The notes beneath the pieces were generated by a model. That model searched no databases. It had not been told where the DNA came from and was given only the letters and a program-made list of their open reading frames with translations. Below, in pieces: positions 2,959-29,574 of a DNA stretch of 64,000 bases (its first letter is position 1; every line of letters starts with the position of its first letter). The translations under genes were made by a program, and so were the position numbers. This stretch comes from Vulcanimicrobiota bacterium (GTDB lineage: Bacteria; Vulcanimicrobiota; Xenobia; Xenobiales; JADMJV01), in NCBI GenBank assembly GCA_050250895.1, contig JBFWNU010000001.1:2406210-2470209 (forward strand), read 5' to 3'.

Positions 2959-4071
2959 ATGGAGCGCTCTCTCGAGAGCTTTCTTGACAGCGAGCGCCAA
3001 CTCGGCCAGCTCGACTCGAGCGGTACCTTTACGCTCGACGCCCACCGCAGCCGACTCAAGCTGGCCCAGTTCCAGCTGGCCAAACGCAGCTACTGGGTGC
3101 TCAAACTGGTGCAAGCCGCGGTTGGCTCGGGGGCCGACCAGGTCGAAGTGACGCTAGGGCGCGACGTCGACTGGGTTCGCTTCGAGCCGACCCTGACCTG
3201 TGAACTCGACCAGCTCATCGCCCACCTCCAGCAACCGGAAGGTCGTTCTGGTTGGCTGGGCGACTTCGCCACCGGCGTCAACGCCATTCTCAGTCAGAGG
3301 CCGAAGACCGTGCTGGTGGGCAGTCCCGACTGGAACTTGCGTCTGGCCGACGGTCATCTTCAGGTCTTTCCGGGCACCTCACCGATGCCGGGTTGGACCG
3401 TGGCGGTGCGCTCGCGCGGAGGCGTCATGGCCTGGGTGGCCGGCGATTCTCGCCACCGGGCCGAAATGGCCGAGGCGATCACCACCCGCTGTTGTTATTG
3501 TCCGGTTCCTATCCTGCTCGACCAGCGGGTGCTGATGCGGGGGGAGCTCAATCCCGACTGGGGGACCCACCCGCGGGGCCGCCGAGGTCAGGAGTTATCT
3601 CGTTTGTTTTATCTGGCTCAGGCCCATCTCGGCCAGGCCAACCGGTTGGCTCGGCTGCGCCCCACCGCGGCCATGCCCGACGGTGGTATCGGTGTTCGTC
3701 ATTGTGACAGCCTGTATTTTCGCGAGGCTACCTCGGACCTTTGTGCCTTTCTGGCCGTACCGCTCGGCTTGCGCGGCCCGGGGCGAGTCGACTTTGTGCA
3801 GTCGGGAGTGATCGTGGACCGGCACCACCTCGATCTGGGAGTCGAGGGCGCTCAGGTGGTGGTGGACGGTCCCGGGCTCTCGGTCGACCTTTCTCACTTT
3901 CAACTGATCGAGAACCCCGCTTACCAGGCTCTGGTGGCGCGCTTGCGCGAAGAGGTCAGGTTGCTGGTCGAAGTCGCCTCGGGCCATCTCGACTTGCTGG
4001 GCCAGGATAGCGCCAACCTCGAGAAGTATGTGCGCTTTCGCCTGGCTCTGCTGAAGGAGCCCGAGTTCTAA
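2959..4071 (+). CDS. hypothetical protein
   Basis: 370-aa ORF; ATG immediately follows the upstream stop (coupled). No recognisable motif. Confidence 0.55.
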   Translation: MERSLESFLDSERQLGQLDSSGTFTLDAHRSRLKLAQFQLAKRSYWVLKLVQAAVGSGADQVEVTLGRDVDWVRFEPTLTCELDQLIAHLQQPEGRSGWLGDFATGVNAILSQRPKTVLVGSPDWNLRLADGHLQVFPGTSPMPGWTVAVRSRGGVMAWVAGDSRHRAEMAEAITTRCCYCPVPILLDQRVLMRGELNPDWGTHPRGRRGQELSRLFYLAQAHLGQANRLARLRPTAAMPDGGIGVRHCDSLYFREATSDLCAFLAVPLGLRGPGRVDFVQSGVIVDRHHLDLGVEGAQVVVDGPGLSVDLSHFQLIENPAYQALVARLREEVRLLVEVASGHLDLLGQDSANLEKYVRFRLALLKEPEF

Positions 4072-4088
4072 GCTGGGAAATTCAGAGG

Positions 4089-4694
4089 ATGAGCACTTTG
4101 GCTACCGCGACCTTCGCCCTGGGATGATTCTGGGGTCCTGACTCCCAGTTCGGGAGTGTGGCGGGAGTGGTCTCGACCCGGGTCGGATACGCCGGCGGCA
4201 CCACCATCAACCCGCACTATTACAAGATCGGCGACCACGCCGAGTGTCTCGAGGTCGACTTCGACCCTGAGAGGATCAGCTTTGCGCGTTTGTTGCACCT
4301 GTTCTGGCAGTGGCACAATCCCTTTCGCGCCGCCTGGTCAAGACAGTACATGTCGGCCATTCTCTCTCATGATGCCGGTCAGCGCGAGGTGGCTCTCGAG
4401 TCGGCGGCAGCCCTCGAAGCGGCCCGGGGTCAAAAGGTCTGCACCGAAATCTTGCCCTATGAGGGCATGACTTTGGCCGAGGACTATCATCAGAAGTATT
4501 TCCTGCGCCGCAACCATCTGGTGACTCGGGAGTTCGAGCAGCAGTTTCCGCTGTTACGTGACTTCGTCGACAGTTCGGCGGTGACGCGGGCCAATGCCGT
4601 CTTTGGCGGACATCTCAAACTCGAACCGACCGAGGTCGACCACTTCGGGCTCTCGCCGCGAGCCGCTCAGGCCCTGCTTCGCGCACGTTGGTAG
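4089..4694 (+). CDS. msrA: peptide methionine sulfoxide reductase MsrA with in-frame TGA (4125-4127) at the catalytic Cys position; putative selenoprotein
   Basis: ATG at 4089 gives MSTLATATFALG-TGA-FWGPDSQFGSVAGVVSTRVGYAGGTTINPHYYKIGDHAECLEVDFDP... This matches the MsrA signature AxFAxG-C-FWGxE....GVxSTxVGYxGG, with TGA exactly where the catalytic Cys (GCFWG) sits. A hairpin (4141-4157) lies 13 nt downstream of the TGA. Confidence 0.7.
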
Positions 4695-4758
4695 ACTAAA
4701 CCCAGATGATGCGCGAGCGAACCTTGTCTTGCCGCGGCTCGGCTACGCATCACCTGGG

Positions 4759-5733
4759 TTAAAGGTCGGTGTCGAGCAATTCCTCGATGCTCATGTCCGA
4801 GAGCCCCAGTTGGCGTCCGACCCTAAGCACGAAATCCCGCTCGGAGGGGTGCTGGTGACCATCGGCTCGAGCCAGGGCGATGAGATCGATGATGGCTGCC
4901 AGCTTTTGGCCCGGTTGCTCTTCAAAGGCGGTGAAGTCGATGGGAGGGGACTCGCCGCTCTCGAGGTACCCGCGCAGCTCACGCCGGGCGGCAGCCGGCA
5001 GTTCGGGGCTCTCGACCAGGGGTAACAAGAAGCGGCGCTCGAGGGCGTGCAGCTCTTCATCGGCCTGGGCCAGGCTGATCATCAGCTTCAGACGTTCGAA
5101 TTCAAGCGGGCTGACCGGCCCTTCGACCGACGGGTCCGGCTCGACGATGCGAACCTCTTGACTGAGCAGCAGGGTGGCGTGCTGAGCGACCTTGCGACTA
5201 AGATGGTTGGCCCAGATGCCTAAGGCCGAGCCGGCGGCTTGAGGTACGAAGCGAACCAGGACCGACCTCAGGATGCGCTCGCTGATTTGCTCGGCCACTC
5301 TCTGGTTGAGTTCGGCCGCCAGCCCCGCCGAGCCGGTTTGCACGGTCAGGCCCTCTTTGCCCACGCTCAGCACGCCTTCGGCTCGACCGTCGACACCGAG
5401 CAGCACGATGCCCATCAGCAATTCACCGGGGACTTCGGTATGGCCGTGGATGGCGGCCAGATCATAGACCAATCGCAACTGGTCACCCACCACCTCGACC
5501 ACCACCGGCACGATGGCCAGCACCGCCCCGGGCCCCCCCGTCAATTGGCTCGACAGCACTCGCTGAGCGCAGCTCTGGGCGCATTGTTCGACCAGGCGCC
5601 CGACGGCTTCGAGCGGGGGAGCGGGATGACGTTGGTAAAATTCGGACCGCTCGGCCAGCACCGAGGCCACCACGCTGGGCAGCTTCGAAGTGATGGCCGC
5701 CTGGGTCTGGGCGGCGAGGCTAGAATAGGACAT
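4759..5733 (-). CDS. hypothetical protein with TerB-like C-terminal region
   Basis: Internal Met (MSYSSLAAQTQ...) of the 389-aa ORF. C-terminus (DGHQHPSERDFVLRVGRQLGLSDMSIEELL) resembles TerB/DjlA-N-like helical domains. Its start lies divergent from the kinase gene. Confidence 0.5.
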   Translation of the reverse strand: MSYSSLAAQTQAAITSKLPSVVASVLAERSEFYQRHPAPPLEAVGRLVEQCAQSCAQRVLSSQLTGGPGAVLAIVPVVVEVVGDQLRLVYDLAAIHGHTEVPGELLMGIVLLGVDGRAEGVLSVGKEGLTVQTGSAGLAAELNQRVAEQISERILRSVLVRFVPQAAGSALGIWANHLSRKVAQHATLLLSQEVRIVEPDPSVEGPVSPLEFERLKLMISLAQADEELHALERRFLLPLVESPELPAAARRELRGYLESGESPPIDFTAFEEQPGQKLAAIIDLIALARADGHQHPSERDFVLRVGRQLGLSDMSIEELLDTDL

Positions 5734-5851
5734 GGCCAGGGCTTCTCTTTGGCCAGGCCGCGTCCTTTTGAGAGGGCCAAAGGCTCCCTTTCGCGGTGCG
5801 TCGAACTCTAGTGGAGTGGGCGGTTTCTGGGTGTCTCGAATTGGCCTCGGG

Positions 5852-7138
5852 ATGGGGCTGCTGTGGCTGCTCGCCGGTGGCGTTCGGGCTGACGACTGGC
5901 ATTCCGTCGTTTTCGAGAGCAAACCCAACGGGGCCCAGATCGTGGACCTCTACGACAACGAGATTGGCCGCACGGGTGCCCCCTGCCGCTTGAATCTCGA
6001 TAATTTCAGCGAAGTGGTGGACCTCGAACTGCGTGCGCCCGGCTATCGGACTTTCGCCTTCTCGATGCGCAAGAGCAAGTTCTCGAAGGCCGAACGCTTG
6101 CCTGAAGAGGGCGCCTATGTGCTCGAGCCGGTCAGCCCCGGGGCCATGGTCGGGCTCTTCCTGCGGCGCTGGTGGTGGGTCTTGCTGGCCGGGGTGGCGG
6201 GGGCGACCCTGGCCGCGAGACGACATCTGACGGTGCGCGCCCGGGCGCGGCGGGAGCGGGCCCTCGAAACGCTCGAGGCCAGCGCCAACGGTTCTTTGGC
6301 CATGGCTCGGGTGGGAGGCTACGTCGTGGTCGACAAGTTGGGCGTAGGCGGCATGGCCAGCGTTTACCGGGCGGTGCCCGAGAAGGACCCCGAGCGAGGC
6401 CAGCCGGTGGCGATCAAGGTGCTTCACCGAGAGCTTTCCAGTGATCCAGACTATCGCGAACGGTTTTTGAGGGAAGTCAAGATCTGCGCGGGCCTCAACC
6501 ATCCCTCCATCGTGCGGCTGTATGACTGGGGCCAGTTTCAGCATGCGGGTCAGGAGCGGGATTACCTGGTCATGGAGATGGTCGAAGGTTGCTCTTTGCG
6601 CCAGAAGATGGCCTCCGAGGGCTTGCCGGCCAGTGAGGCGATGGCTTTCCTCGAGCCCATCTGCAAAGGGGTGCACTTCGCTAATTCGCGCGGAATTGTG
6701 CATCGCGACTTAAAACCCGAGAACATCATGGTCACCACGGCCGGGCGGGTCAAAGTGATGGACTTTGGTCTGGCCCGCAACCAGAACCTCGACCGCATCA
6801 CCAAGACCGGCGTCACCCTGGGCACCCCCGCCTATATGGCGCCCGAGCAGATTCGCGGTCAGGATCCCGAGGCCACCATCGACCAGTATGCGGTGGGTGT
6901 GCTCGCCTATGAACTGTTCACCGGTCGGCTACCCTTTCAGGACCAGGACCCTATCACGCTGATCTACCGTCATCTTGAAGAGGAGCCGCCGCCGCCTCGA
7001 CAGTTCAAACCAGACCTGGCCGAGAGCCTCAATCAGATCCTCTTGCAGATGCTCGAAAAAGATCCCGAGTTGCGTTTTCGCGACCTGGAGGAAGCCTTGC
7101 GAGCACTGCAGTCGGCAGTGGGGGTCGAAGTTGGTTGA
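5852..7138 (+). CDS. receptor-like Ser/Thr protein kinase (Hanks type): N-terminal signal peptide + PEGA-like extracytoplasmic domain, single TM, C-terminal kinase
   Basis: Signal peptide MGLLWLLAGGVRA; PEGA-like segment SKPNGAQIVDLYDNEIGRTGAPCRL; TM GLFLRRWWWVLLAGVAGATLAA. Kinase motifs: GVGGMASVY, AIK, HRDLKPEN, DFG, APE. Start chosen to leave room for divergent promoters; the 5732 ATG is the alternative. Confidence 0.75.
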   Translation: MGLLWLLAGGVRADDWHSVVFESKPNGAQIVDLYDNEIGRTGAPCRLNLDNFSEVVDLELRAPGYRTFAFSMRKSKFSKAERLPEEGAYVLEPVSPGAMVGLFLRRWWWVLLAGVAGATLAARRHLTVRARARRERALETLEASANGSLAMARVGGYVVVDKLGVGGMASVYRAVPEKDPERGQPVAIKVLHRELSSDPDYRERFLREVKICAGLNHPSIVRLYDWGQFQHAGQERDYLVMEMVEGCSLRQKMASEGLPASEAMAFLEPICKGVHFANSRGIVHRDLKPENIMVTTAGRVKVMDFGLARNQNLDRITKTGVTLGTPAYMAPEQIRGQDPEATIDQYAVGVLAYELFTGRLPFQDQDPITLIYRHLEEEPPPPRQFKPDLAESLNQILLQMLEKDPELRFRDLEEALRALQSAVGVEVG

Positions 7139-7139
7139 G

Positions 7140-8726
7140 ATGGCCGTCACCGACTCGGGCGCTCGTCGTCTTTTCGACAGCGCCTTGCGCTTTCTGGTCG
7201 AGGCCCTGAGAGCCGACCGAGCCCTGGTGCTCTATGGCGAGACCAACCTCGAAGTCAAGGCCGCCCATGGCTTCAATCCCCGCACCGCGCTGGTCGGCGG
7301 CCCCCTGAGCATGGCCTTGCTCGAGCGGGTCCGCAGCAGCGCCGCCCCGCTGATGTTGGCCGACGCCCGTCGAGATAAGACAGTGGGTGACCATTTGAGC
7401 GTTGAACTGTCGGGTCTGCGCTCGGTGGTGTGCGTGCCTTTGCTGGCGCCCCGGGGCGAGGTGGCGGGCCTGCTCTATGGCGACAGCGTCGAGCACAACA
7501 GCCTGTTCGGCAATGAGCAATTGAGCAAACTGGTCGATTTCGCCAGCCGGCTCGAACGGGCTCTCTTTTCGGGGCAGGCTCTCGAGTTGCCGGCCGCCCA
7601 AGCGCCAAAGCGCCGCAAGCGAGTCGAGGTGGCTCCTGCCTCGCCCGCCCAAGAGGTGGCGCGGCCCCTGGCGATGGGTGAGCCGTCCGGACTAGGGCTG
7701 CGCGACTCGAGCAACTTCTTCCGATCGTTGGGGCTGATGGTGCAGACCGGGCTACCGATTCATCGAGGCCTGGCTTTGTTGGCCGAACATCGCGACTTGC
7801 CGGCCCTGGCCGGCGTATCGGGCTTTCTACTCAACGACCTGCTCAAAGGCAAGAGCCTGTCGTCGAGCATGGAGCGACTGCCGGCTAGCTTTGCGCCCTT
7901 TGTGGTCCAGCTGGTTCGAGCGGGTGAGAATTCCGGCTCGCTGCCTCACGTGCTGGCCGCCCTGGCCGCCCACCAGGAGCGCTCGGAGCGGCTCACCCTG
8001 AAGCTTCGCAGCGCTCTCACCTATCCGGCCGCGGTGCTGGGGGTGACGCTAGTCCTGTTGGCGGTGGGCCCGCCTTATCTACTCAAGAGCCAGATTCAGC
8101 TGATTGAGGGTTCGGGGGTGGCCCTCGGTTGGCTGACCCAGGCTCTCATCCTGGCCTCGAAGATCGTGGTCTCGCCACTTTTCTGGGGGGTCGCCGTGGC
8201 CGGGCTGGTGGGGTTGGCGGTGGCCGCCCGGACCGGCTTGCGAAACCCCGACCAGCGGCGGCGTTTGGCCGTGATGGGGCTGAAGGTTCCCTTGCTCGGT
8301 TCAGTGTTGCGGTTGGCCGCCGTCAGCCGCTTCGCCAGCGCCCTATCGCTGCAACTCAAAGCGGGTGTGCTGTTGGCCGATGCCCTCGAACAGGCGGCCC
8401 AGGCGGCTGCTCACCCGCTCTTGCTCGAGCGGATGCCTGTGGTCTTGAGTCGCCTCAAGAACGGGGCCGGTCTGGCCGAATGTCTGGCGGAAGCCCAACT
8501 CTTTCCTCGCTCCTTCCTGGGTATCATCGAAGCGGCCGAGTCCACCGCCAGTGTGCCGGGCATGCTCGATTGGGTTCATCAGCACTACGAACTCGAAATC
8601 GATTCGGGACTATCAGCCCTAACGGCCGCCCTCGAGCCTCTGGTGTTGGGCCTGGTGGGCGGAGTGGTCGGCCTGACGGTGCTGGCCAGCATGGTGCCGG
8701 TGATCAAGATGCTGGAGGTGCTCTAG
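7140..8726 (+). CDS. GAF domain fused to a GspF/PilC-type (T2SS/T4P) inner-membrane platform protein
   Basis: Internal Met (MAVTDSGARR) 2 nt after the kinase stop. N-terminal GAF-like region (LVLYGETNLEVKAAHGF...VCVPLLAPRGEVAGLLYGDS). Two T2SSF repeats (FFRSLGLMVQTGLPIHRGLALL...GENSGSLPHVL; ...IIEAAESTASVPGMLDWV...) and the typical C-terminal TM (LVLGLVGGVVGLTVLASMVPVIKM). Confidence 0.75.
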   Translation: MAVTDSGARRLFDSALRFLVEALRADRALVLYGETNLEVKAAHGFNPRTALVGGPLSMALLERVRSSAAPLMLADARRDKTVGDHLSVELSGLRSVVCVPLLAPRGEVAGLLYGDSVEHNSLFGNEQLSKLVDFASRLERALFSGQALELPAAQAPKRRKRVEVAPASPAQEVARPLAMGEPSGLGLRDSSNFFRSLGLMVQTGLPIHRGLALLAEHRDLPALAGVSGFLLNDLLKGKSLSSSMERLPASFAPFVVQLVRAGENSGSLPHVLAALAAHQERSERLTLKLRSALTYPAAVLGVTLVLLAVGPPYLLKSQIQLIEGSGVALGWLTQALILASKIVVSPLFWGVAVAGLVGLAVAARTGLRNPDQRRRLAVMGLKVPLLGSVLRLAAVSRFASALSLQLKAGVLLADALEQAAQAAAHPLLLERMPVVLSRLKNGAGLAECLAEAQLFPRSFLGIIEAAESTASVPGMLDWVHQHYELEIDSGLSALTAALEPLVLGLVGGVVGLTVLASMVPVIKMLEVL

Positions 8727-10324: not shown

Positions 10325-10707
10325 GGCGGCGCGGGCTGAGCTTGATCGAAACGGTGGTGGCGGCCGCCCTGGTCGGACTGGTCGTGCTGCTGGTCACCAA
10401 TCTGTTTCCCCTTTCCCTGACCGGCGTGCGCCAGCAAGAGCAGTATTTGCAGGCGGATCTACTGGCCGGCTCGGTGCTGGCCGATCAGCAGATGGTGCCC
10501 TTCGTGGAGTTGACACCGGGCGACCGCCAGGTGCTCGACCCGGTCGAAGTCGATGGGGTGGCCTATACCGCCACTGTCGAAATCGATAGGGTCTCGGGCA
10601 GCGACCCGGCCTATCTTAAAGCGGTGCGCGTGACCGTGAACTGGCAGTATCAAGCCCAGGCGCGACAGACGGTGGAGGAGGTCTGGGTCGATGCGGTCGG
10701 GCGTTAG
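10321..10707 (+). CDS. prepilin-type N-terminal cleavage/methylation domain pseudopilin (GspI/PilV-like)
   Basis: MRRRG|LSLIETVVAAALVGLVVLLV is a class III signal peptide with Glu at +5. ATGA overlap with the upstream gene. Confidence 0.75.
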   Translation: MRRRGLSLIETVVAAALVGLVVLLVTNLFPLSLTGVRQQEQYLQADLLAGSVLADQQMVPFVELTPGDRQVLDPVEVDGVAYTATVEIDRVSGSDPAYLKAVRVTVNWQYQAQARQTVEEVWVDAVGR

Positions 10708-11293
10708 GGCCTATACCCTGGTCGAGGTGCTGGTGGCAGCCTTTCTCATGAGCCTGTTGCTGACCGTGCTGTTTCAGGTGCTTTTTCCGCTGGTGCGAGC
10801 CTCTCACCGCAGCTACCGGCGCATCTCGATGCAAGAGGTGGGAGGTTTGGCTCTCGACCGCCTGGCCCGCCAGTTCGAGGCCACTCCGGCCGTGGGCGTC
10901 ACCCCGCCTCAGACAACGGCCCAGCAGGTAGTGCTGGCTCTTCATCCCATCGATTCGGTCTCGAGCAGCGGTCGCCAGTTCTATGCCGACCACCTCGAGG
11001 TGTTTCACTGGCGACGCGACAGCGGCCGCCTCATCCATGAAACCTGGACCGAGGCGGGCGTAGACCTCAGTCTCGAGCCACGCCGCCTGACCGCCATCGA
11101 ACTTCAGGCCGTTGTCGACAGCGACAACGGCAGCGAGCGGGTGCTGGCTCATGGAGTGACCAGCTTTGTGGTCGCCGCGGCTGGTAGCGGACCCGGCCTG
11201 GTATTGCCGCTCACGGTGACGCTCAAGCTCGAAGACCAGAGCGACAGGCTCGAACTGAGCCGGCGTCTTTACCTGATGAACTCTAGCCTCTAA
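10691..11293 (+). CDS. prepilin-type pseudopilin (GspJ/PilW-like)
   Basis: MRSGVRA|YTLVEVLVAAFLMSLLLTVLF with Glu at +5 and a hydrophobic helix. 17-nt overlap with the upstream gene. Confidence 0.65.
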   Translation: MRSGVRAYTLVEVLVAAFLMSLLLTVLFQVLFPLVRASHRSYRRISMQEVGGLALDRLARQFEATPAVGVTPPQTTAQQVVLALHPIDSVSSSGRQFYADHLEVFHWRRDSGRLIHETWTEAGVDLSLEPRRLTAIELQAVVDSDNGSERVLAHGVTSFVVAAAGSGPGLVLPLTVTLKLEDQSDRLELSRRLYLMNSSL

Positions 11294-16377: not shown

Positions 16378-16418
16378 GGCGCCGCGACTTCGCGACCTGC
16401 TATGGACGACCCCTGCCC

Positions 16419-16434
16419 GGTGATCGGTGTCACG
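16419..16434. promoter_or_regulatory. CRP/FNR-like palindromic site GGTGA-N6-TCACG, conserved upstream of cassette copies A and C
   Basis: ggtgatcggtgtcacg matches the TGTGA-N6-TCACA architecture at 4/5 + 4/5. An identical 16-mer occurs at 24228-24243. Confidence 0.4.
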
Positions 16435-16603
16435 CGGCAAAAGGAGTAGAGATAGCTACATGTCGCAGTCTAGATGTACCATTGGTTCGCAGAACGTGTA
16501 TTTTGTTGGTTGTATGGGTGTCCAAAGTTTGAAAAATAGTAAACAGAGGTTTTGTGTGGGGGGTAAAGAAGCACTGGGTTCGAGCATCCTTGGGGAGGTG
16601 GTC

Positions 16604-19600
16604 TTGGTTCGAGCGTCTCGTTTCTTTCTTCTTTTGCTGGGCTTGCTTTTGGTTGGCTGTGAATCCGGCCAACTGGTGGATGAGATCGAAAGAGGGCAAT
16701 CTCGGCCAATCTCCCATCGAAATCGTGTGTTGGCCGAATTGACTCTGCAAACCGAGAATGGCCCCTACAAGCTTGTGAAGGGGAGGGGGCTCATTCCGGC
16801 CGAAAATAGCCCGGTGCCCCAACCGCGTACGGGGGATGGCGTTCGCGCCAGAACCGGCGAGAGCATTCTGGCCGCGACTGAGCTGCCCCCGGAGTATTTT
16901 TTCGGAGCCCACTATCAGTTCGATGTGGACAAACGCAACTTCTTCATCGGCGAGGAGCCGGTAGGGACGGCCTGTGTTCGCTACAATAGCGAAGAATTCA
17001 ATAATCTTCCCCACAGCAGCGAAGCCTATCGCTTTGGCAACCTGGAGTTCGCTAGCCTGGGGGTGGCTGTCGGGCCTAACCAGTTTCCAGGCACCGCCTC
17101 GACCACCATGGTGGTGAGCACGCCCGCCGGGATTGAAGAGATCGAGATCCCTAAGATGGACGGCGACACAATCACCGTTTCACCACCAATCACCGTTCGG
17201 ATGGACTATGCCTACACCCCCATCCCCAATTCTAGCCTCTACTATGGGCGAACCGAGACGTTCGTCAACGGAAACTCGGTAGCGATCAGTTCTTCAAACT
17301 TCACCATTGGCGTGAGCGTCGAGCTGCCCTCGGTGCATGGGATCTATACTACCGAAAATCACGCCGAGCGACAGACCTATGCCAACGCGCCTTTCCAGCT
17401 TCAGGACAGCTTTGACGTGGGCAGTCAGGTCTTTGCTCGCAAGTTGGAGTTTGCAGATGACTTCACTCCGATGGAGTTCACGCCGGGCCAACCAGTGACG
17501 ATCACCAACAGCTTCCGCTGGGACTCCGGCCCAACTGATGTCGTCGATGCCCGGTGGGAGGTCATCGTCGAAGACACCCTGGAGAATCAGTTTACGAGAT
17601 TTCAAGAAGGCACCGGGACCGACATTTCGGCCACCTTCGACCTGTCTGATGTTTTGGCTCGCGGCCAGGTGCCCCGGCGTTACGTTCTCATCCCTGCCGG
17701 CAGCCCACTCGAGGCCAGTATCAAGCAGGAGCAGGCACGGTTGCGAGCTCGAGGCGAGGACATTCGCGCCCAGACGGACGTGATACCCCTGACCTATCGG
17801 GTCATCGCGAGCGCCGAGGCCTATCCTCGTAGCCGCGTCTTTCCGCTGGTCGGCTCGCAGTTTTATCAGGCACGCTACTACGCGGTGAATAGCCAGATCT
17901 CACCGGCCTTGCGCATCCGCGACATCAACATTGATCCCAACCCGTTCGAGCCCAGCCCCCCGGAGGTGGCCCCCGAAGACCGTCAGGTGGCCGTCATCTC
18001 GGCCTACGTCGACGCCAATGGCTTCGACGGTGGCTATGTGTTGGTCGAGCCTCGAATCTATGACCAGGCCGGCAACCTGGTGAAGACGTTCGAGGACCAG
18101 TATCCCATCGACTACGTCGAGTTGGAATGGGACGGCTATGACGATGAGGGAAACCCACTTGACCCGCAGGAGTTTCTGGTGGAGCTGCAAGCCCACGTCT
18201 GCGATTTCAGCGGACCGGCTCGCGAGATCTTGGCCGAGATTGCGCCCCAGACTCTGCAATTGGGTAGTTGTTCTCTGACGGGGGATGTCGCCCAGGCGCC
18301 CTTAGTGACCGGAGGGGCCCAGGGCGGTGAACTCAAGGTCTATGCAATCAACAAATTGATCGCCTGGGGTAAGAATCCGACCAGTGCTATCGTGACTAGA
18401 GCTCAGGAGGGCTTTCTGCGGGATGTCTATGCCGCTGGTCCTACGGCCCCGGGTGATCCCCAGCCCGCAAAGCTGAAATTGGAAGCCAGCAACCTCGGGC
18501 CGGTTGGAGGTGACGTTACTGTCGTCGCACGCGGGAATGTGAGCCAGGTGGACTCAGTAGCCGTCACACTAACAGACGACGACCACGACGGAACTTACAC
18601 GGGTGAGTTGTTGTTGACACCAGATTTCATTAAGGTCGGCGGGCCACTCACGGATGTGCAGGGTGAAGCGGGACGGATGACCTTCAGTGTCGGCGAGCGG
18701 CTCAACAATGAGGGTGGAGTTACCGCCGCGATCTTTGCCAACCTTCTCTCCGCCCTCGGTCCCGAATTCTACCCTTACCCCAAGCCCGCGATTTCTCTAG
18801 GCAAATTCGAAGAAGATTTGCTCGGGAGCCAGCTCACTCTCGCCAATGACGATGAGGCCACCGCCACGGCAAACAACCTGGCCAGTACTGGCTTTGAGGC
18901 GCTAACCCTAACGCTCAGGGTAGGAAGCGATGTGGTGGTTACAACCAAGGCCAAGGTTCGCCATCCCGCTGATGTTCTATTCTGGAATTTCCATGGTCTA
19001 CGCCACGGCTCACTCAGCCCCGAAAGCGAGATTGCCAAGAGAGAGAACCGGCTTCCTACGATACTCCTCACGCCCGAAGACTTTGTAGTGAAGCCGGTCG
19101 CAAGAACCGTAATGTTTGCCGCTTGCGATGTGCTGTGCCTGAACGACTACAACGGTGCGTGGCCCAACGAGTCGAACTTTGGCGGACGCCGCTGGTATGC
19201 CGCGATGGACACCCCGGGACACAACACAGTCTTGCTAGGATTCACGGCCCAGACAGGTGCAACTCTTACAACCTCTGAGGTCATCGAACTCTACGGAAAA
19301 AGGATTGATGACTATATCGCGGCGGGCGAAACGGACAGGAGAAAGATTCAGGCGCTGGCCTGGGTTAGGGCGAATCTCGAGGTTGGTCTCAACCTTCAAG
19401 CCGACGGCTCAACGGGTCCTGTGGATGCACTAAGAAGCCTGCAACTTCGTGCTTGCGCCTATGCAGCCGATAGCACGGGAGAGTACTTTTACTACATCCC
19501 TGTGCAGCATCGGCCCACTCAGGACCTTGCTCTGGTCTTGCAGAACGTCGAGACCACACCCGTGGTCAAAACTGCCGAGGGCATCTACAGAGTGCGCCGC

Positions 19601-19705
19601 GAGCATTGGGGTGAACCGGTCCTTTTCGACGTTAGGAGGCCAAAAGATGCACAACTTGTACTCGAAGTGGTGCGACACAACGATGGGACGGTGGAATTGC
19701 GATGA
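16604..19705 (+). CDS. large secreted lipoprotein (cassette A gene 1) with FlgD-Ig-like domain
   Basis: TTG start 5 nt after GGAGG. Lipoprotein signal MVRASRFFLLLLGLLLVGC (lipobox LVGC). FlgD-Ig-like block IRDINIDPNPFEPSP...YVLVEPRIYDQAGNLVKTFEDQYP...ELEWDGYDDEGNPLDPQEF. About 1033 aa; the start is inferred from conservation with copy C. Confidence 0.65.
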   Translation: MVRASRFFLLLLGLLLVGCESGQLVDEIERGQSRPISHRNRVLAELTLQTENGPYKLVKGRGLIPAENSPVPQPRTGDGVRARTGESILAATELPPEYFFGAHYQFDVDKRNFFIGEEPVGTACVRYNSEEFNNLPHSSEAYRFGNLEFASLGVAVGPNQFPGTASTTMVVSTPAGIEEIEIPKMDGDTITVSPPITVRMDYAYTPIPNSSLYYGRTETFVNGNSVAISSSNFTIGVSVELPSVHGIYTTENHAERQTYANAPFQLQDSFDVGSQVFARKLEFADDFTPMEFTPGQPVTITNSFRWDSGPTDVVDARWEVIVEDTLENQFTRFQEGTGTDISATFDLSDVLARGQVPRRYVLIPAGSPLEASIKQEQARLRARGEDIRAQTDVIPLTYRVIASAEAYPRSRVFPLVGSQFYQARYYAVNSQISPALRIRDINIDPNPFEPSPPEVAPEDRQVAVISAYVDANGFDGGYVLVEPRIYDQAGNLVKTFEDQYPIDYVELEWDGYDDEGNPLDPQEFLVELQAHVCDFSGPAREILAEIAPQTLQLGSCSLTGDVAQAPLVTGGAQGGELKVYAINKLIAWGKNPTSAIVTRAQEGFLRDVYAAGPTAPGDPQPAKLKLEASNLGPVGGDVTVVARGNVSQVDSVAVTLTDDDHDGTYTGELLLTPDFIKVGGPLTDVQGEAGRMTFSVGERLNNEGGVTAAIFANLLSALGPEFYPYPKPAISLGKFEEDLLGSQLTLANDDEATATANNLASTGFEALTLTLRVGSDVVVTTKAKVRHPADVLFWNFHGLRHGSLSPESEIAKRENRLPTILLTPEDFVVKPVARTVMFAACDVLCLNDYNGAWPNESNFGGRRWYAAMDTPGHNTVLLGFTAQTGATLTTSEVIELYGKRIDDYIAAGETDRRKIQALAWVRANLEVGLNLQADGSTGPVDALRSLQLRACAYAADSTGEYFYYIPVQHRPTQDLALVLQNVETTPVVKTAEGIYRVRREHWGEPVLFDVRRPKDAQLVLEVVRHNDGTVELR

Positions 19706-21555
19706 AAACGAAGATCGGGATGGTGACATTGACGCTTTGCCTTCTAAGCGGGGTCTGGGCTCAGGAGCCAGAGTTCCCGGCAGCGGACCCCGTGCGCCGC
19801 GCGATTCAGAGTTATGAACTACATGATTTGGATCGTGCCCTGGCCGAGTTCCTGGCCCTTGCAGAGAGTCATCGGGGAACTCCGGTGGGCTCAAATTGTC
19901 TCTTCTGGGCGTCAGATACTGCTCTACTCGCGGGGGACCAGGAGCAGGCACTGGCCATCCTTAACCGCATCACGCAAGAATACGCTGGCACTCACATGGA
20001 GCTTTCGGCAAGGCTGCGGCTCATTGAGCTTGTGCCTCCGAGCACTGGAGACGGAGCGACAGAAGCTTACGACGAACTCGCACAGCAGAATGGGGCACCT
20101 CCCCTTGCGGTGTTGATTGACCCGGCCCGGAAACTAGAGAACACGATCGCAATCCGGGCGTTGCCAGAAGAGTCGAGGAAGGGTCTCAGGTTGCTATACG
20201 TGACAGTCCTTGGCGAATTGAGTTTTCATCCCCCGCAGGAGGCCGCTGTCCTCGGGCAGGTTTTGCGGGGAGCGTTGGACCGTGATGGCGGCGCCGAGTT
20301 CTACGGCTCGTTGTATAACACCGCGAGGCGTTCACACGAGCGACGCCATCTCTGGTCGCCCACTCAGGAAGACTTTCAGAATCCCGTCGTGTCGCCTCTG
20401 AACCCTAGCGATGGTAGCACTGTCGCCCCAGGCGGAATGCTAGAGGCCCAGCTTTACATGGAAGACTTCTATGCTATGGGATTGGATCTGGCTACGCTGC
20501 GTGTTTCTCTGGACGGTCAGGATGTTACCGATTCTTCCACTTTCGAGTGTTCGGCCGGCCCGGAGTTCGTAGACGGGCAACCCTGGGAGGTGATTACCGT
20601 CCGCTCGCCCATGGCGAACCTATCGAACGGAACACACACGGCCACCGTTACCTGTCAGGTATACCTCTATCCGGGCCAGGGCCCGGGGCTGACGACGAAG
20701 ACCTGGTCGTTCACTATCGCCAATCAGGCCTCTGAGGCAGCGCTCTATCCATCGAAGGACTCGACCCTCCGACTCCGCGACCCCCATCTCAACGAGGGAG
20801 CCAACCCTAGACTCATCCTGGAGAAGATCCAGGGTAAGACCACTCACGCCCTGGTGGGCTTTGACCTGTCCCAACAGAACCTGACCGGCCTGACTTCGGC
20901 CAGCCTGGTCTTCACCATCGACCCCAGCGACTCTCCCACCGGCTGGGGCAATGGGCGCAACGTCCTCGCAGCCCCGATCTCGACCGGCTGGCTGGAGGGG
21001 AACGGCGTCGACTTCGGCGTGCCCAACGCGCAGAAGACCAGCGGGTCCGGCCCGGGCGTGACCTGGTTCAGTCCTGTCGATGAAGACATCAGCAACAACT
21101 ATGCCAACTCGGCCGTGAATTGGAACGGGGCCGGTGCGGCCAGCGGCCCTCCGACAGCCTTGGCGGTGCAAATCCATAACCATCAAACCGGAGAGGTCTC
21201 CTTCGATGTCACCCAGGATGTCCTCAACGGATCCTCGAGCTGGTTGGTGAGAAGAGAGGACGAGAACGTCGGCTCGCAAGTCCACTTCTACTCCAGGGAA
21301 GGTGGCGGAGCCTCAGCCGGCCCGCGCCTGGTCCTTCACTACGGTGCCTCGGCCAACAAACCCGCAGGAGACGCTCTGTTGGCCAGGGCCTGGGACACCC
21401 CGGTCGCGGTCCTTCGCAATCTCGCCGGGCTCGGGCTGTCGGGTGGCCCGATGACAAACTTGCTGATCCTGCAAGCCCGTTCGTCGGGCCTCGACATCCT
21501 GAGTGCGGGATTGCGCAGTCTGGTCGCCCGGCGCGAGATGGCCCTGCTCCTTTAG
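19702..21555 (+). CDS. secreted protein with TPR-like N-terminal region and DNRLRE-like C-terminal domain (cassette A gene 2)
   Basis: Signal peptide MKTKIGMVTLTLCLLSGVWAQ; ATGA overlap with gene 1. C-terminal pattern SKDSTLRLRDPHLNEGANPRLIL...ALVGFDLS...SASLVFTID...GWGNGRNV fits the DNRLRE/CBM96-like signature (D-x-T-L...N-x-G...L-x-L...F-D-L-S...A-S-L). Confidence 0.7.
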   Translation: MKTKIGMVTLTLCLLSGVWAQEPEFPAADPVRRAIQSYELHDLDRALAEFLALAESHRGTPVGSNCLFWASDTALLAGDQEQALAILNRITQEYAGTHMELSARLRLIELVPPSTGDGATEAYDELAQQNGAPPLAVLIDPARKLENTIAIRALPEESRKGLRLLYVTVLGELSFHPPQEAAVLGQVLRGALDRDGGAEFYGSLYNTARRSHERRHLWSPTQEDFQNPVVSPLNPSDGSTVAPGGMLEAQLYMEDFYAMGLDLATLRVSLDGQDVTDSSTFECSAGPEFVDGQPWEVITVRSPMANLSNGTHTATVTCQVYLYPGQGPGLTTKTWSFTIANQASEAALYPSKDSTLRLRDPHLNEGANPRLILEKIQGKTTHALVGFDLSQQNLTGLTSASLVFTIDPSDSPTGWGNGRNVLAAPISTGWLEGNGVDFGVPNAQKTSGSGPGVTWFSPVDEDISNNYANSAVNWNGAGAASGPPTALAVQIHNHQTGEVSFDVTQDVLNGSSSWLVRREDENVGSQVHFYSREGGGASAGPRLVLHYGASANKPAGDALLARAWDTPVAVLRNLAGLGLSGGPMTNLLILQARSSGLDILSAGLRSLVARREMALLL

Positions 21556-21597
21556 AAGCCCGAGCAACCCTGACAGGGCTCGAACAAGCCCTCGCAG

Positions 21598-21739
21598 AAC
21601 CGGTTCAAATGGCACTCAAAGCCGTTCCGCCTCGCATGGATGCCCAGGGGCGCCCTTACCTGGTCTGAGGACCTCTCCGACGAGATGTTCCGCTCCATCC
21701 TGCGCGGCGACTGCGGCCCCGAGCTTCAGGCCCTCTACA
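21598..21739 (+). pseudogene. remnant of the small AbiEii-partner gene (homolog of 29266..29574), frameshifted and truncated by the duplication junction
   Basis: atggcactcaaagccgttccgcctcgcatggatgcccaggggcgcccttac... is identical to 29266 onward except for a 5-nt deletion (ccttacctggtctga vs ccttacttcctctggtctga). Homology ends at ...ctctaca (21739). Confidence 0.5.
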
Positions 21740-22330
21740 GTTTGCCGCTTGCGATGTGCTGTGCCTGAACGACTACAACGGTGCGTGGCCCAACGAGTCG
21801 AACTTTGGCGGACGCCGCTGGTATGCCGCGATGGACACCCCGGGACACAACACAGTCTTGCTAGGATTCACGGCCCAGACAGGTGCAACTCTTACAACTT
21901 CTGAGGTCATCGAACGCTACGGGAAATGGATTGACGACTATATTGCGGCGGGCGAAACGGCAGGAGAAAGATTCAGGCGCTGGCCTGGGTTAGGGCGAAC
22001 CTCGAGGTTGGTCTCAACCTTCAACCCGACGGCTCAACGGGCCCTGTGGATGCACTAAGAAGCCTGCAACTTCGCGCTTGCGCTTATGCAGCCGACAGCA
22101 CGGGAGAGTATTTCTACTACATCCCTGTGAAACACGAGCCTACCAAAGACCTGGACCTGATTCTCCAGAATGTGGAGACTACTCCGAGAGTCAAGACCGC
22201 CGAGGGCATCTATAGAGTGAGCCGCGAACATTGGGGTGACCCGGTCCTTTTCGACCTTAGGAGGCCCAAAGATGCGCAACTTGTACTCGAGGTGGTGCGA
22301 TACGACGATGGGACGGTGGAATTGCGATGA
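21740..22330 (+). pseudogene. 3' fragment of a cassette gene-1 copy (duplicate of 19114-19705), frameshifted
   Basis: First ~180 nt identical to 19114 onward, then ~90% identity. A 1-nt deletion (aacggcaggag vs aacggacaggag) splits it into two ORFs (21756..22058, 22046..22330). No 5' part or signal peptide. Confidence 0.7.
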
Positions 22331-24078
22331 AAACAAAGATCGGGATGGTGACATTGACGCTTTGCCTTCTAAGCGTGGCCTGGGCCCAGGAGCCAGAGTT
22401 TCCAGAAACAGACCCTGTGCGCCACGCTATTCAGAGTTACGAGTTGCATCAGTGGGATCGTGCCCTGGCCGAGTTCCTGGCCCTCGCAGAGAGTCATCGG
22501 GGAACGCCGGAGGGCTCAAACTGTCTCTTTTGGGCGTCAGATGTCGCTTTGCTCGCGGGGGACGAGGCGCAATCGTTGGCTATCCTCAACCGCATCGCGC
22601 AAGAATACGCCAGCACCAACATGGGACTCTTGGCGAGGCTCCGTCTCATTGAGCGGACATCCCCGAACTCCAGAGAAGAAAGGGTCGCTGCCTACGACCA
22701 ACTCGCCCAAGCGAAAGGCGCGCCTTCTCTCGCCATCTTGATCGACCCGGCCCGGAAAGTGGAAAACATGATGAAAATCCGGTCATTGCCAAGGGAATCC
22801 AGAAACGGTCTCAGGATGCTCTACGCGAGAGTCGTTGACGAATTGGGTTTTCACCCCCCGCAGGAGGCCGCTGTCCTCGGGCAGGTCTTGCGGGGAGCGT
22901 TGGACCGTGATGGCGGCGCCGAGTTCTATGTCTCGTTGTATGACGCGGCGAGGAACTCACACGAGTTGAGGGGTCTCTGGTCGCCCACTCAGGAAGACTT
23001 TCAGAATCCCGTCGTGGCGCCACTAAACCCTAGCGATGGTAGCACTGTCGCCCCAGGCGGAATGCTAGAGGCACAGCTTTACATGGAAGACTTCTATGCT
23101 ATGGGATTGGATCTGGCTACGCTGCGTGTTTCTCTGGACGGTCAGGATGTCACCAATTCTTCGACTTTCGAGTGTTCGGCCGGCCCGGAGTTCGTAGACG
23201 GGCAACCCTGGGAGGTGGTTACCGTTCGCTCGCCCATGGCGAACCTGTCGAACGGAACACACACGGCCACCGTTACCTGTCAGGTATACCTCTATCCAGG
23301 CCAGGGCCCCGGCATCACAACGAAGACATGGTCGTTCACTATCGCCAATCAGGCCTCTGAGGCAGCGCTCTATCCATCGAAGGACTCGACCCTCCGCCTA
23401 CGCGACCCCCATCTCAACGAAGGCGCGAACCCTCGGCTCATCCTGGAGAAGATCCAGGGCAAGACCACTCGTGCTCTGGTGGGCTTTGACATGTCCCAAC
23501 AGAATTTGACCGGCCTGACTTCGGCCAGCCTGGTCCTCACCGTCGACCCCAGCGACTCTCCCACCGGCTGGGGCAACGGGCGTAACGTCCTCGCGGCTCC
23601 GATTTCCACCGGCTGGCTGGAGGGGAACGGCGTCGACTTCGGCGTGCCCAACGCGCAGAAGACCAGCGGGTCCGGCCCGGGCGTGACCTGGTTCAGTCCT
23701 GTCGATGAAGACATCAGCAACAACTATGCCAACTCGGCCGTGAATTGGAACGGGGCCGGTGCGGCCAGCGGCCCTCCGACAGCCTTGGCGGTGCAAATCC
23801 ATAACCATCAAACCGGAGAGGTCTCCTTCGATGTCACCCAGGATGTCCTCAACGGATCCTCGAGCTGGTTGGTGAGAAGAGAGGACGAGAACGTCGGCTC
23901 GCAAGTCCACTTCTACTCCAGGGAAGGTGGCGGAGCCTCAGCCGGCCCGCGCCTGGTCCTTCACTACGGCGCCTCGGCCAACAAACCCGCAAAAGACGCT
24001 CTGTTGGCCAGGGCCTGGGACACCCCGGCCGCGGTCCTTCGCAATCTTGCCGGGCTCGGGGGACTGGTGGCCCGATGA
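22327..24078 (+). CDS. cassette B gene 2: secreted TPR-like/DNRLRE-like protein, C-terminally truncated by a frameshift
   Basis: N-terminus ~85% identical to 19702..21555; C-terminal domain nearly identical. A 1-nt deletion near 24058 (ctcgggggactgg vs ctcgggctgtcgggtgg) gives an early stop; the homologous stop is at 24176-24178. Confidence 0.65.
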   Translation: MKTKIGMVTLTLCLLSVAWAQEPEFPETDPVRHAIQSYELHQWDRALAEFLALAESHRGTPEGSNCLFWASDVALLAGDEAQSLAILNRIAQEYASTNMGLLARLRLIERTSPNSREERVAAYDQLAQAKGAPSLAILIDPARKVENMMKIRSLPRESRNGLRMLYARVVDELGFHPPQEAAVLGQVLRGALDRDGGAEFYVSLYDAARNSHELRGLWSPTQEDFQNPVVAPLNPSDGSTVAPGGMLEAQLYMEDFYAMGLDLATLRVSLDGQDVTNSSTFECSAGPEFVDGQPWEVVTVRSPMANLSNGTHTATVTCQVYLYPGQGPGITTKTWSFTIANQASEAALYPSKDSTLRLRDPHLNEGANPRLILEKIQGKTTRALVGFDMSQQNLTGLTSASLVLTVDPSDSPTGWGNGRNVLAAPISTGWLEGNGVDFGVPNAQKTSGSGPGVTWFSPVDEDISNNYANSAVNWNGAGAASGPPTALAVQIHNHQTGEVSFDVTQDVLNGSSSWLVRREDENVGSQVHFYSREGGGASAGPRLVLHYGASANKPAKDALLARAWDTPAAVLRNLAGLGGLVAR

Positions 24079-24227
24079 CAACCTTGCTGATCCTGCAAGC
24101 CCGTTCTTCGGGCCTCGACATCCTGAGTGCGGGATTGCGCAGTCTGGTCGCCCGGCGCGAGATGGCCCTGCTCCTTTAGGATTCTCGGATTTGACAATCC
24201 GGCCGAACGCCGGGCTGCACGATGCCC

Positions 24228-24243
24228 GGTGATCGGTGTCACG
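24228..24243. promoter_or_regulatory. second copy of CRP/FNR-like site ggtgatcggtgtcacg
   Basis: Identical 16-mer to 16419-16434, within a ~30-nt conserved block (cccggtgatcggtgtcacgcggcaaaa). Confidence 0.4.
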
Positions 24244-24412
24244 CGGCAAAATGAGTAGCGCCAGCTACATGTCGTAGCCTGATTGTTCTTTCGGTTTGCA
24301 AGTCGCATCTTCTGGTAGTTTGAGGGGTGGCAAAAGTTTGAAAAATAGTAAATAGAGGTTTGGTGGGGGGGGTAAAGAAGCACTGGGTTCGAGCAATCCT
24401 TGGGGAGGTGGT

Positions 24413-27341
24413 CTTGGTTCGAGCGTCTTGGAGTCGATCCGCCGTGTTAGGTTTCTTGGCTGGCTGGTTTGCCATAGGCCTTGTCGCTTGCGAGAGTTCG
24501 AGGGTGCTCGACCAAGTGGAAACACCCGCACCAGGTCGAACACCTCGAACAGGGGCCGAGTCCTGGCCGAGTTGGCCCTCAGGACCGACGAGGGAGAGTT
24601 CAAAGTCGTGAAAGGCGCCGGCAAGGTTGCCCTGGAGAAGCAGCCGCGCGAGGAGAAAGTCGCGACCAGGGGCGTGTTGGACAACCCGGGCTATTCTTTC
24701 TTCGGGCACCGGCAATACGGCGACTTCGAGTTTTTTCGCCTCGACGAGGACAACCCGGTAGGCTATCTTCCTTACTCCAGCAGCGATGCGGTTTCGAGCC
24801 GGCTGCCAGGGATTTCCGGCGGCGGCTACCGATATCGCATGATGGGATTCGTTAGCCTGGGCGTGAGCGGCGATCCTCATGTACCCGGCCAATCTTCGGT
24901 CGAACTGGTCGTCTCGACACCCGACGGCATCGATGAGGTCGAGGTGCCGACCCTCGATGGCGACACGGTCACGGTGGCTCCGCCCATTACCCTGCGCCGG
25001 GTTCAAACCGTGACCAGCACCGGTGGAGTGGTGTCTCAGCGGGTCGAGACCTTCGTCAACGGAGTCTCGCTCGGGGTCGACTCGTCGAGTTATCTGGAAA
25101 TTGGGTTGAAAATTCCGTCGGTGTCCGGCGACTACCAGGTGAGCACTCACGGCCAGCGCTCGATCAACTATGACGAGCCGGTCAACGATAGCTACGATCT
25201 GGCCTGGACCATCCCGGTTCGCAAACTGCAGTTGGCCGAGAGCCTGGGGCCGGTCGAGGCGACCCCGGGACAGCCCATCATCATCAGCAATCGCATCACC
25301 TGGGACAGTCCGGGCGAGGTTGTGGATGCCAAATGGACTGTGACCCTCAGTGATGTCTTCGACGAGAACTATGAATTCTACGAGGGCACAGGAGAGATGT
25401 CTCGGCCACCTTTGACACCTCGAGTTTTCAGGCCAGAGGGACGACGCCGCGACGTTACCTGCTGATTCCCGCCGGTAGCTCGCTGGTGGACATGCTCAAG
25501 GCCAAGCAGGCCGAACTTCTTGCTCGGGGCGAAGACATCCGGGCCCAGACCGACCTGGTTCCTTTGGTCTACGAAATCTTCGCCAGCGCCGAAGCCTTCC
25601 CGCAGCAGGAAGTCTTCCCGAACTCTGGGGTGCAATTCTATCAGGCTCGCTACTTTCTGCTCAGCGAGTCGCAGGCCGAGCCGGCCATCCGCATTCGCGA
25701 TCTGAGCGTCGACCCCAATCCCTTCGAGCCCAGCCCGGTGGCCCCCGAGGACCGTCAGGTGGCGACGATCTCGGCCTATGTCGACGCGGTGGGCTTCGAC
25801 GGCGGCTATGTGGTGGTCGAGCCTCGCATTTACGACCAATCGGGAAACCTGGTGCGAAGGTTCGAAGACCAGTATCCCATCGACTACTTTGAGCTGGAGT
25901 GGGACGGTTATGACGATGAGGGCAATCGGGTCGAGCCTCAGGAGATCACGATTCAACTGAGTGCCCACGTCTGTGACTTCGCGGGCCTGGCTCGTGAGAT
26001 CGCGGCAAAGTTATCGCCTGAGATCTTAGCACAGGGTTGTTCCCTCCCGTCAGACGCCTTTCTGGTGGCTCAAGTTGGAACGCCACTAAATGGTGTGATT
26101 CAGGTACGTTCTGGAACTAACCTGGTTGCTCAAAGCTTTCATGGTACTCCGAGTTCGGCCGATCTGGCCAGGTTGAGAACAGTCTTTCCCGACGGGCGCA
26201 ACGGCGTCAACAACACGTTAGAGATATCCGCTTCCGGGTTCACCGGGAATCCGCCATCGAGCATTGAGATTGTTCTCGAAGGGTCTGCGAGCAGCACTTC
26301 ATCGGCCCCTATGATTCTAAATCAGGCCAACAACTATACCACAAGTTTTACGCTGACACCTGGCCTGATCAGAACCGGCCAGCTTGGCCCTAGCATCACG
26401 TTTTCGGACTCGGTGTTGAGCGTGACGGGCGGAGCGCAGCTGTTGTTCGAAGGGTCGCTCATGGGAAGCGGCGTTCCGTATCCGGGCCCAGACCCGACCT
26501 CTTTGGGAACCTACAAGGATGGGTCCTCGGCCTCAGAGGCAGAAAATACCGCGAGCAACGTTTCCAGCCTGGGGTATGAAACCGTAGAGATTAGAGGGAC
26601 GGCGGTTCATTTTCAAGCATTGCAAGGCTTAAGGTGAGACACCCGTCCGAGGTCTTTTACTTCGTGCAACATGGATCCGGAACCGGAGAGATCGATTTGG
26701 GGGGTAACCAATCCTTGAACCCGGGTCAGAATATTACCCGTTCGGATTGCACCTCTTTGAAAACTCTGATATTCACAGCCTGTCGGGGCTTGGTGCTCAA
26801 TGATTATAACAATCTATATGAAAACCATCGCCCATTCGCGGATATGGCGACCCGAAGGCAATTGGACTTCGGGGGTCCCAAATGGTACAACATCACAGGT
26901 GCATCCGACGCGTTTGCCCCGTTTTCCCCAACCGAACGGAGGACAGTGCTTCTGGGATTCAACCACGTTGCACCCGCTAAGCTGGCCGCGGATATTCTCG
27001 ATGTCTATCGACTTGCCTTGGGAGATTTGCGAGGAAAGATTAACCAGGGCGACCTAACTGTCAAGAATCTTGAACCGCTGGCCTGGATGAAGGCCAACCT
27101 AGCGGTTCTCCAGGGCGCGAGTGGCTCAGAACTGGCGAGAGGCTTGTGCCTGAACGCGTGCGCTTACGATACTGAGTATTACTATTATATACCGTTTGAT
27201 CGATTCGACCCGACCGAAGACCCGTTTCGTTCAACGCGCGAGGTTCATCGTGTTCCGCGTGGAGACTGGAACACAGATCTCACTCGAGTTGAGTGGATTA
27301 CGACGCCGAAGCGGGTCGGCAGGATGGTTACCATACCGTAG
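24413..27341 (+). pseudogene. cassette C gene 1: large lipoprotein homolog of 16604..19705, disrupted by at least three frameshifts
   Basis: Signal peptide/lipobox frame (VLGFLAGWFAIGLVAC) differs from the body frame (24428..25465). A 1-nt deletion near 25395 (gagatgtctcggccacc vs gaccgacatttcggccacc). A -1 shift at 26634/26637. The three ORFs together are ~55-70% identical to copy A. Confidence 0.6.
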
Positions 27342-27349
27342 GAGGATAC

Positions 27350-29265: not shown

Positions 29266-29574
29266 ATGGCACTCAAAGCCGTTCCGCCTCGCATGGATGC
29301 CCAGGGGCGCCCTTACTTCCTCTGGTCTGAGGACCTCTCCGACGAGATGTTCCGCTCCATCCTGCGCGGCGACCGCGGCCCCGAGCTTCAGGCCCTCTAC
29401 ACTGGAAGGCTGCTGCGGGAAGCCAGAATGGCCGAAGTCTGGTGGTACCTCAAACCTCAGGATATAGCCGACCGCTGGCCTGAGGTGGCGCGTCATCTCG
29501 GCCGGGCTCGCCAGTTCTGGCATGAGCTACTGGAGGCCTGGCGTGAAGCCGGACGCGTTTCCTGGCAACCTTAG
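29266..29574 (+). CDS. small protein, putative partner/antitoxin of the downstream AbiEii-family nucleotidyltransferase
   Basis: 102-aa ORF overlapping the downstream NTase gene by ~50 nt. A disrupted copy sits behind cassette A. Function inferred only from gene context. Confidence 0.45.
   Translation: MALKAVPPRMDAQGRPYFLWSEDLSDEMFRSILRGDRGPELQALYTGRLLREARMAEVWWYLKPQDIADRWPEVARHLGRARQFWHELLEAWREAGRVSWQP

Follow-up and report, generated by a model that had tools for sequence, protein, structure and literature searches.

A candidate selenocysteine-containing methionine sulfoxide reductase A with a SECIS-type hairpin in a Vulcanimicrobiota genome

Positions 4089-4694 on the forward strand of the DNA analysed here (a stretch of 64,000 nucleotides from a Vulcanimicrobiota MAG, hereafter the window) very probably encode a two-domain methionine sulfoxide reductase A (MsrA) of the Clostridium oremlandii type, in which the catalytic selenocysteine (Sec) is encoded by the in-frame UGA at 4125-4127. 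This reading brings together the reading frame, the homology to MsrA, the active site, the conserved TGA, the selected hairpin behind it and the fold common with the C. oremlandii enzyme (CoMsrA), all of which were observed. The Sec-containing MsrA of C. oremlandii is known from earlier purification and crystallisation, and the window gene is an ordinary further member of this known family.

The frame described in the initial annotation, opened by ATG and running through the TGA, holds at its coordinates. The start codon (4089-4091) lies 17 nt past the TAA (4069-4071) of an upstream open reading frame (2959-4071, 370 aa, no family match), and MSTLATATFALG is encoded from there up to the TGA at 4125-4127, which is codon 13. 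FWGPDSQFGS comes next in frame, and the part beyond the TGA (FWGPDSQFGSVAGVVSTRVGYAGG...) comprises 188 further codons ending at the TAG (4692-4694), so that the msrA coding sequence has 201 codons including the Sec codon. Only the post-TGA part, from GTG 4158 to 4694 (178 aa), appears in the program-made list of open reading frames. When Cys was put at the TGA, residues 6-141 of the translation matched PMSR (PF01625) with 126.7 bits (E = 1.2e-36; the gathering cut-off is 23.7 bits), and the post-TGA part of the protein also matched the TIGR00401 msrA profile. The protein collection contained no exact entry for either the 178-aa model or the 201-aa model with X at the TGA.

Searched with phmmer against solved structures, the window protein matched CoMsrA best (E = 5e-54; seven entries, 4LWJ, 4LWK, 4LWL, 4LWM, 4U66, 4W8C and 7C13), and residues 4-179 aligned without gaps to residues 7-182 of the chain. 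The identity is 48% over these 176 residues, with 57% in the catalytic part and about 16% in the C-terminal part. Sec13 of the window protein is aligned to U16 of CoMsrA, which is replaced in the PDB entries (U16C or U16S); in both genes a UGA stands at the catalytic position of GCFWG. All of the active-site residues are present: G12, U13, F14, W15, G16, Y44, E52, Q86, Y87, H134 and Y137 correspond one-to-one to 15-GCFWG-19, Tyr47, Glu55, Gln89, Tyr90, His137 and Tyr140 of CoMsrA (PMC4333827). Of 104 Sec-form orthologues, all have U13, Y44, E52, Q86, Y87 and H134, and 92 have Y137.

Together with the Pfam match, these residues delimit a catalytic MsrA domain (residues 1-141, 4089-4511). It is followed by a C-terminal helical domain (residues approximately 142-201, 4512-4691), for which the AlphaFold2 model of residues 14-201 (mean pLDDT 95.5, pTM 0.89) predicts five helices. 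With this model, Foldseek returned full-length CoMsrA first (4LWK and 4LWJ, E of about 5e-21, TMq 0.89, 186 columns), whereas other MsrAs were aligned over the catalytic domain alone (135-145 columns, TMq of about 0.6-0.65). The modelled two-domain build of the window protein therefore resembles that of CoMsrA, whose C-terminal five-helix domain is absent from other MsrA structures and is essential to hold the active site (PMC4333827). The same source describes CoMsrA as a native selenoprotein (Sec16) that has 209 residues and no Cys. More generally, MsrA (motif GUFWG/H) is one of the prokaryotic selenoprotein families with experimental verification (PMC13188914). The canonical Cys-type MsrAs (PF01625; those of E. 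coli, bovine and M. tuberculosis) have the catalytic fold and the active-site residues in common with the window protein; however, their catalytic residue is Cys and they have no helical domain, whereas the window protein has a predicted Sec together with such a domain. The canonical enzymes carry C-terminal resolving Cys residues and are recycled by thioredoxin. CoMsrA itself, from Clostridium (Alkaliphilus) oremlandii OhILAs, was reportedly described by Kim et al. in 2009 (Proteins 74:1008) and by Lee et al. in 2014 and 2015. Its host is a Firmicute, unlike that of the window gene, and a related Alkaliphilus genome (L091) has the TGA form with the hairpin at the same place.

A protein search with the window MsrA returned 4,681 homologues. 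Full-length Cys homologues, which read TATFALGCFW(G/A)PD(S/A)xFGS, have their Cys in exactly the column of the window's TGA, in agreement with the proposal that the TGA replaces the catalytic Cys of GCFWG, and the orthologues with U in this column have a TGA there as well. The nearest relatives (P0001, 99% identical, and P0004, P0027, P0047 and P0105) are short gene calls that start past the TGA. Translation of the in-frame sequence upstream of five such calls (L001-L005) gave in every case an ATG with 9-12 codons ending A-T-F/L-A-L-G, then the TGA and FWGPD. L001, which comes from an independent assembly (Logan SRR27751815), keeps the TGA and gives a translated product 100% identical to that of the window; L002-L005 show 57-62% identity to the window protein. 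Furthermore, when the TGA-form DNA pattern GCNYTNGGNTGATTYTGGGGNCCNGA was scanned across one genome per species, at least 119 matching stretches were found among species-representative genomes of many phyla. All of the matches listed (at least 119) are homologues of the window MsrA with a TGA in the same column and 41-68% identity over the aligned part. Among these matches, the hosts belong to Planctomycetota, to Desulfobacterales, Syntrophales and Myxococcota (former Deltaproteobacteria), to Chloroflexota (Dehalococcoidia and Anaerolineae), Synergistota and Clostridia including an Alkaliphilus, and to Nitrospirota, Acidobacteriota, Spirochaetes, Actinomycetota and others, as well as a Candidatus Xenobia bacterium (L052). 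Some genomes have two distinct copies of TGA-form msrA (L047 and L106, both on contig CAVZNY010000007.1; L039 and L069, both from the MAG SRR3933245_bin.12). The initial annotation had called Sec-MsrA rare in bacteria; this agrees with the surface ocean, where the GOS data contain 9 Sec and 4,678 Cys MsrA sequences (PMC2398784), but not with the occurrence of the TGA form in at least 119 species-representative genomes.

A Sec codon classically shows itself as a conserved TGA with conserved coding sequence before and after it. Because the coding sequence is conserved on either side of the conserved TGA, a pseudogene and a sequencing error are ruled out as its origin; in particular, although a single base change would be enough to turn a real TGC or TGT into this TGA, the chance of such a sequencing or assembly error is negligible, since the independent Logan assembly has the same TGA and at least 119 other genomes have it together with hairpin-specific codon choices. 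A reassigned genetic code was also considered and rejected: TGA is the ordinary stop codon of many normal genes of the window, such as MgtE (52654-54111, TGA at 54109-54111), and reassignment is thus not the explanation.

A hairpin lies downstream of the UGA, in frame, at 4141-4157, and it has the position, the arms and the G and U in the loop that the initial annotation gave. Its arms ACTCCC (4141-4146) and GGGAGT (4152-4157) enclose AGTTC (4147-4151), forming a 6-bp stem and a 5-nt loop encoded by the codons of D18 S19 Q20 F21 G22 S23. The first base of the hairpin is 13 nt past the TGA, and the spacing from the TGA to the loop is 19 nt (4128-4146). RNA folding, which had been suggested as a check, gave a divided answer: the fold of 4120-4180 was not significantly more stable than its dinucleotide shuffles (z = -1.26; 25 of 200 shuffles were as stable), whereas the hairpin was more stable than 99.3% of synonymous recodings. 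As the DNA is GC-rich and the fold of 4120-4180 is unremarkable alone, synonymous recoding and comparative tests were used instead. For the former, the peptide FWGPDSQFGSVAGVV was kept fixed and 5000 synonymous versions were drawn from the window's own codon usage; only 0.7% of them were as stable as the real hairpin (-11.9 kcal/mol against a mean of -5.8 kcal/mol), which uses the minority codons GGG (Gly) and AGT and TCC (Ser).

For covariation, 121 distinct TGA-form sequences were aligned without gaps. The family-typical element is GACUCCCG-GUU-CGGGAGUC, an 8-bp stem with a GUU triloop, while the window has the 6-bp stem and the AGUUC loop; the central GUU of the loop is present in 116 of the 121 orthologues. 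Unguided RNAalifold on this alignment did not recover the hairpin and gave a weak structure of invariant columns (-2.24 kcal/mol) with no covariation, and therefore the explicit hairpin was tested by pair counts with controls. Paired cells amounted to 80.4%, compared with 47-60% when the 3' partners were slid by 1-2 columns. Cells with double changes numbered 64, against 24 ± 3.4 after shuffling, and none of 500 shuffles attained 64. The pair types of three stem pairs serve as examples: CG 73, UA 12, UG 11 and AU 3 in one; UA 56, GC 18, UG 12 and GU 7 in another; GC 73 and AU 23 in the third.

Sec and Cys forms were then compared among sequences with the common peptide context FW(G/A)P(D/E)(S/A)xFG. 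The Cys control set (n = 15) consisted of 11 context-matched sequences from a metagenome TGY scan and four close Cys homologues; most of the 120 metagenome TGY stretches belong to another, low-GC marine subfamily (CFWGPEIKFSK) and were rejected as a poor control. At the Gly codon of the 3' arm, 113 of 119 Sec forms have GGG, compared with only 2 of 15 Cys forms (Fisher p = 6.6e-12), and the 23-nt segment has a mean energy of -10.7 kcal/mol in the Sec forms and -5.6 kcal/mol in the Cys forms (Mann-Whitney p = 5e-7). As judged from these sequences, the hairpin is under selection in the TGA forms only. One Cys form, in a Dehalococcoidia MAG (L248 501-1145, GCA_046497565.1), reads CFWAPDSQFGS with TGC and keeps a perfect hairpin, GGACUCCC-AGUUC-GGGAGUC (-13.9 kcal/mol), which the other 14 context-matched Cys forms do not have; it may be the relic SECIS of a recent replacement of Sec by Cys.

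The bacterial SECIS (bSECIS) model of Zhang and Gladyshev, as given in PMC13188914, allows 3-9 nt in the apical loop and 4-16 bp in the upper stem. One of the first two bases of the loop is a G, in most cases with a G or U after it; the distance from the UGA to the loop is 16-37 nt, and the minimum free energy (MFE) is -7.5 kcal/mol or lower. The window hairpin falls within all of these limits, with its 5-nt loop A-G-U-U-C, 6-bp stem, 19-nt spacing and MFE of -11.9 kcal/mol for a 27-nt segment; like the model, it is a stem-loop within the open reading frame, directly 3' of the UGA, and positions 2 and 3 of its loop are G and U. Covariation, the slide controls, the recoding and the GGG and energy contrast all show that it is conserved among the orthologues beyond the demands of the protein sequence. 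The proposal that the hairpin is a bacterial SECIS is thus strengthened, and we regard it as a putative one. No sequence similarity to the archetypal element of E. coli fdhF was seen, and Rfam at gathering thresholds matched tRNA-Met only in the window, with no SECIS family. Because most of its sequence follows from the conserved peptide D-S-(Q/R)-F-G-S, the hairpin is a candidate family-specific SECIS.

One possible alternative is that the UGA is read through with another residue, either by a near-cognate tRNA (Trp or Cys) or by Cys carried on tRNA(Sec) when selenium is scarce. The inserted residue is not readable from the sequence, and a Cys enzyme would still work: according to PMC4333827, the Sec form of CoMsrA is 20-fold more active than its Sec-to-Cys version, which thus retains about 1/20 of the activity. 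However, Trp at the catalytic position would be inactive, and decoding that depends on SelB is suggested by the conserved hairpin of SECIS type, which lies at the canonical distance, so that we consider readthrough of this kind improbable.

Another explanation is that the TGA is a true stop, the gene being a pseudogene or starting downstream (at GTG 4158 or at the start of P0001) to give a product of 175-178 aa without GCFWG. The public gene calls of TGA-form msrA are in line with this, as is the open reading frame list, since all of the called products (163-183 aa) begin past the UGA (L001 2465-2992; L002 7415-7966; L003 6894-7436; L004 6425-6916; L005 1991-2482; window 4158-4694). Furthermore, no Sec machinery was seen in the 64-kb window: its only tRNA is the tRNA-Met, with no tRNA-Sec, and the 54 open reading frames scanned contain no domain of SelA, SelB or SelD. 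Nevertheless, orthologues of 41-62% identity from many phyla conserve, in frame, both the TGA and the 12 codons leading up to it, which is not expected of untranslated DNA; the shortened product would have neither the catalytic residue nor the complete first helix; selection on the hairpin is seen in the TGA forms only; and the C. oremlandii ortholog is a proven selenoprotein (PMC4333827). A true stop is therefore very improbable. Since the calls begin past the UGA, the called products are without the catalytic motif, and these starts are a systematic annotation artefact of the Sec-MsrA family. The identification of the gene as a Sec-MsrA, made in the initial annotation, is accordingly well supported by the conserved TGA of the orthologues, by the hairpin and by the closest solved structure, that of a selenoprotein.

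Sec insertion at the UGA, binding of SelB and the identity of the reductant are proposed here by analogy. As in the established bacterial pathway, the hairpin at 4141-4157, with its loop starting A-G-U, would act as a SECIS that recruits SelB-GTP-Sec-tRNA(Sec) to the ribosome, and the UGA at 4125-4127 would thereby be read as Sec and not as a stop. The selenolate of Sec13 would then attack the sulfoxide of Met-S-O, aided by Y44, E52, Y87 and other active-site residues, so that methionine is released and a selenenic acid remains on Sec13. A thiol reductant would recycle the selenenic acid; it is possibly glutaredoxin, as for CoMsrA, which is recycled by glutaredoxin and not by thioredoxin (PMC4333827). 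As proposed from CoMsrA, the C-terminal helical domain would keep the active site in shape.

The window protein differs from CoMsrA, a 1-Cys type with no Cys at all, in having two Cys residues, Cys53 (4245-4247), directly past the catalytic Glu52, and Cys118; it thus falls outside the strict 1-Cys definition. Cys118 is unique to the window among the aligned Sec-form orthologues. Cys53 occurs only in the window and L002-L005, while the other 99 aligned orthologues have T, A, S, V or F there; 43 of the 104 have no Cys, and about 30% have Cys near the C-terminus. The five members with Cys53 also lack an N-terminal extension (...IPPID...) that most of the other members have. A doubtful but conceivable idea is that in this leaderless Sec-MsrA sub-clade Cys53 resolves the selenenic acid as a selenenylsulfide, perhaps recycled by thioredoxin. 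If true, the sub-clade would represent a Sec/Cys "two-residue" MsrA with a recycling route other than that of the 1-Cys, glutaredoxin-dependent CoMsrA.

Downstream of msrA are a convergent gene with a TerB domain (4759-5928), a Ser/Thr kinase gene and the gene of an unusual fusion protein (6975-8726) that joins a GAF domain with a type II secretion/type IV pilus platform protein (T2SSF); a pilin-like open reading frame with an N-terminal methylation motif lies nearby (10691-11293). L002-L005 have other neighbours, and the gene is therefore not part of a conserved operon. A search of 3900-4900 showed neither a sigma-70-type promoter nor an intrinsic terminator consensus, and there is no thioredoxin, glutaredoxin, msrB or sel gene near the window msrA. 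In two Cys-form relatives, msrB (SelR, PF01641) is directly upstream of msrA (L248 1-392 and L249 1-501); it is not adjacent to the Sec-form msrA of the window or of L001-L005. Elsewhere in the window, a block at approximately 16400-29200 has a G+C content of 0.53-0.62, compared with 0.63-0.66 in its flanks, and contains large same-strand open reading frames, mostly without a Pfam match; three of about 600 aa (19702-21555, 22327-24078 and 27293-29212) have a C-terminal DNRLRE domain, and an AbiEii toxin-like gene (29522-30187) follows them. This block may be an acquired island. An open reading frame at 33834-35003 matches MATCAP (PF08014, the microtubule-associated tyrosine carboxypeptidase family; E = 1.5e-50), here in bacterial DNA. 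Many open reading frames of the window have no Pfam match, which fits a phylum that has been little studied.

The phylum Vulcanimicrobiota, previously named Eremiobacterota, includes the class Candidatus Xenobia. No second credible selenoprotein candidate with an in-frame TGA was found in the 64-kb window. The host MAG is probably a selenocysteine user, and the window MsrA may be the first selenoprotein noted in this phylum; a non-exhaustive search of the literature on selenocysteine in Eremiobacterota or Vulcanimicrobiota returned nothing specific. The window gene and the family data leave the existing knowledge of Sec-MsrA unchanged. They do provide a clean case of a SECIS-type hairpin built of the codons of a conserved peptide (D-S-R/Q-F-G-S), in which selection is visible as a preference for GGG that is gone in the Cys forms. 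Furthermore, recognition of the TGA form would allow such genes to be annotated correctly, here as a predicted selenoprotein of 201 aa instead of an "MsrA" of 163-183 aa without its catalytic residue.
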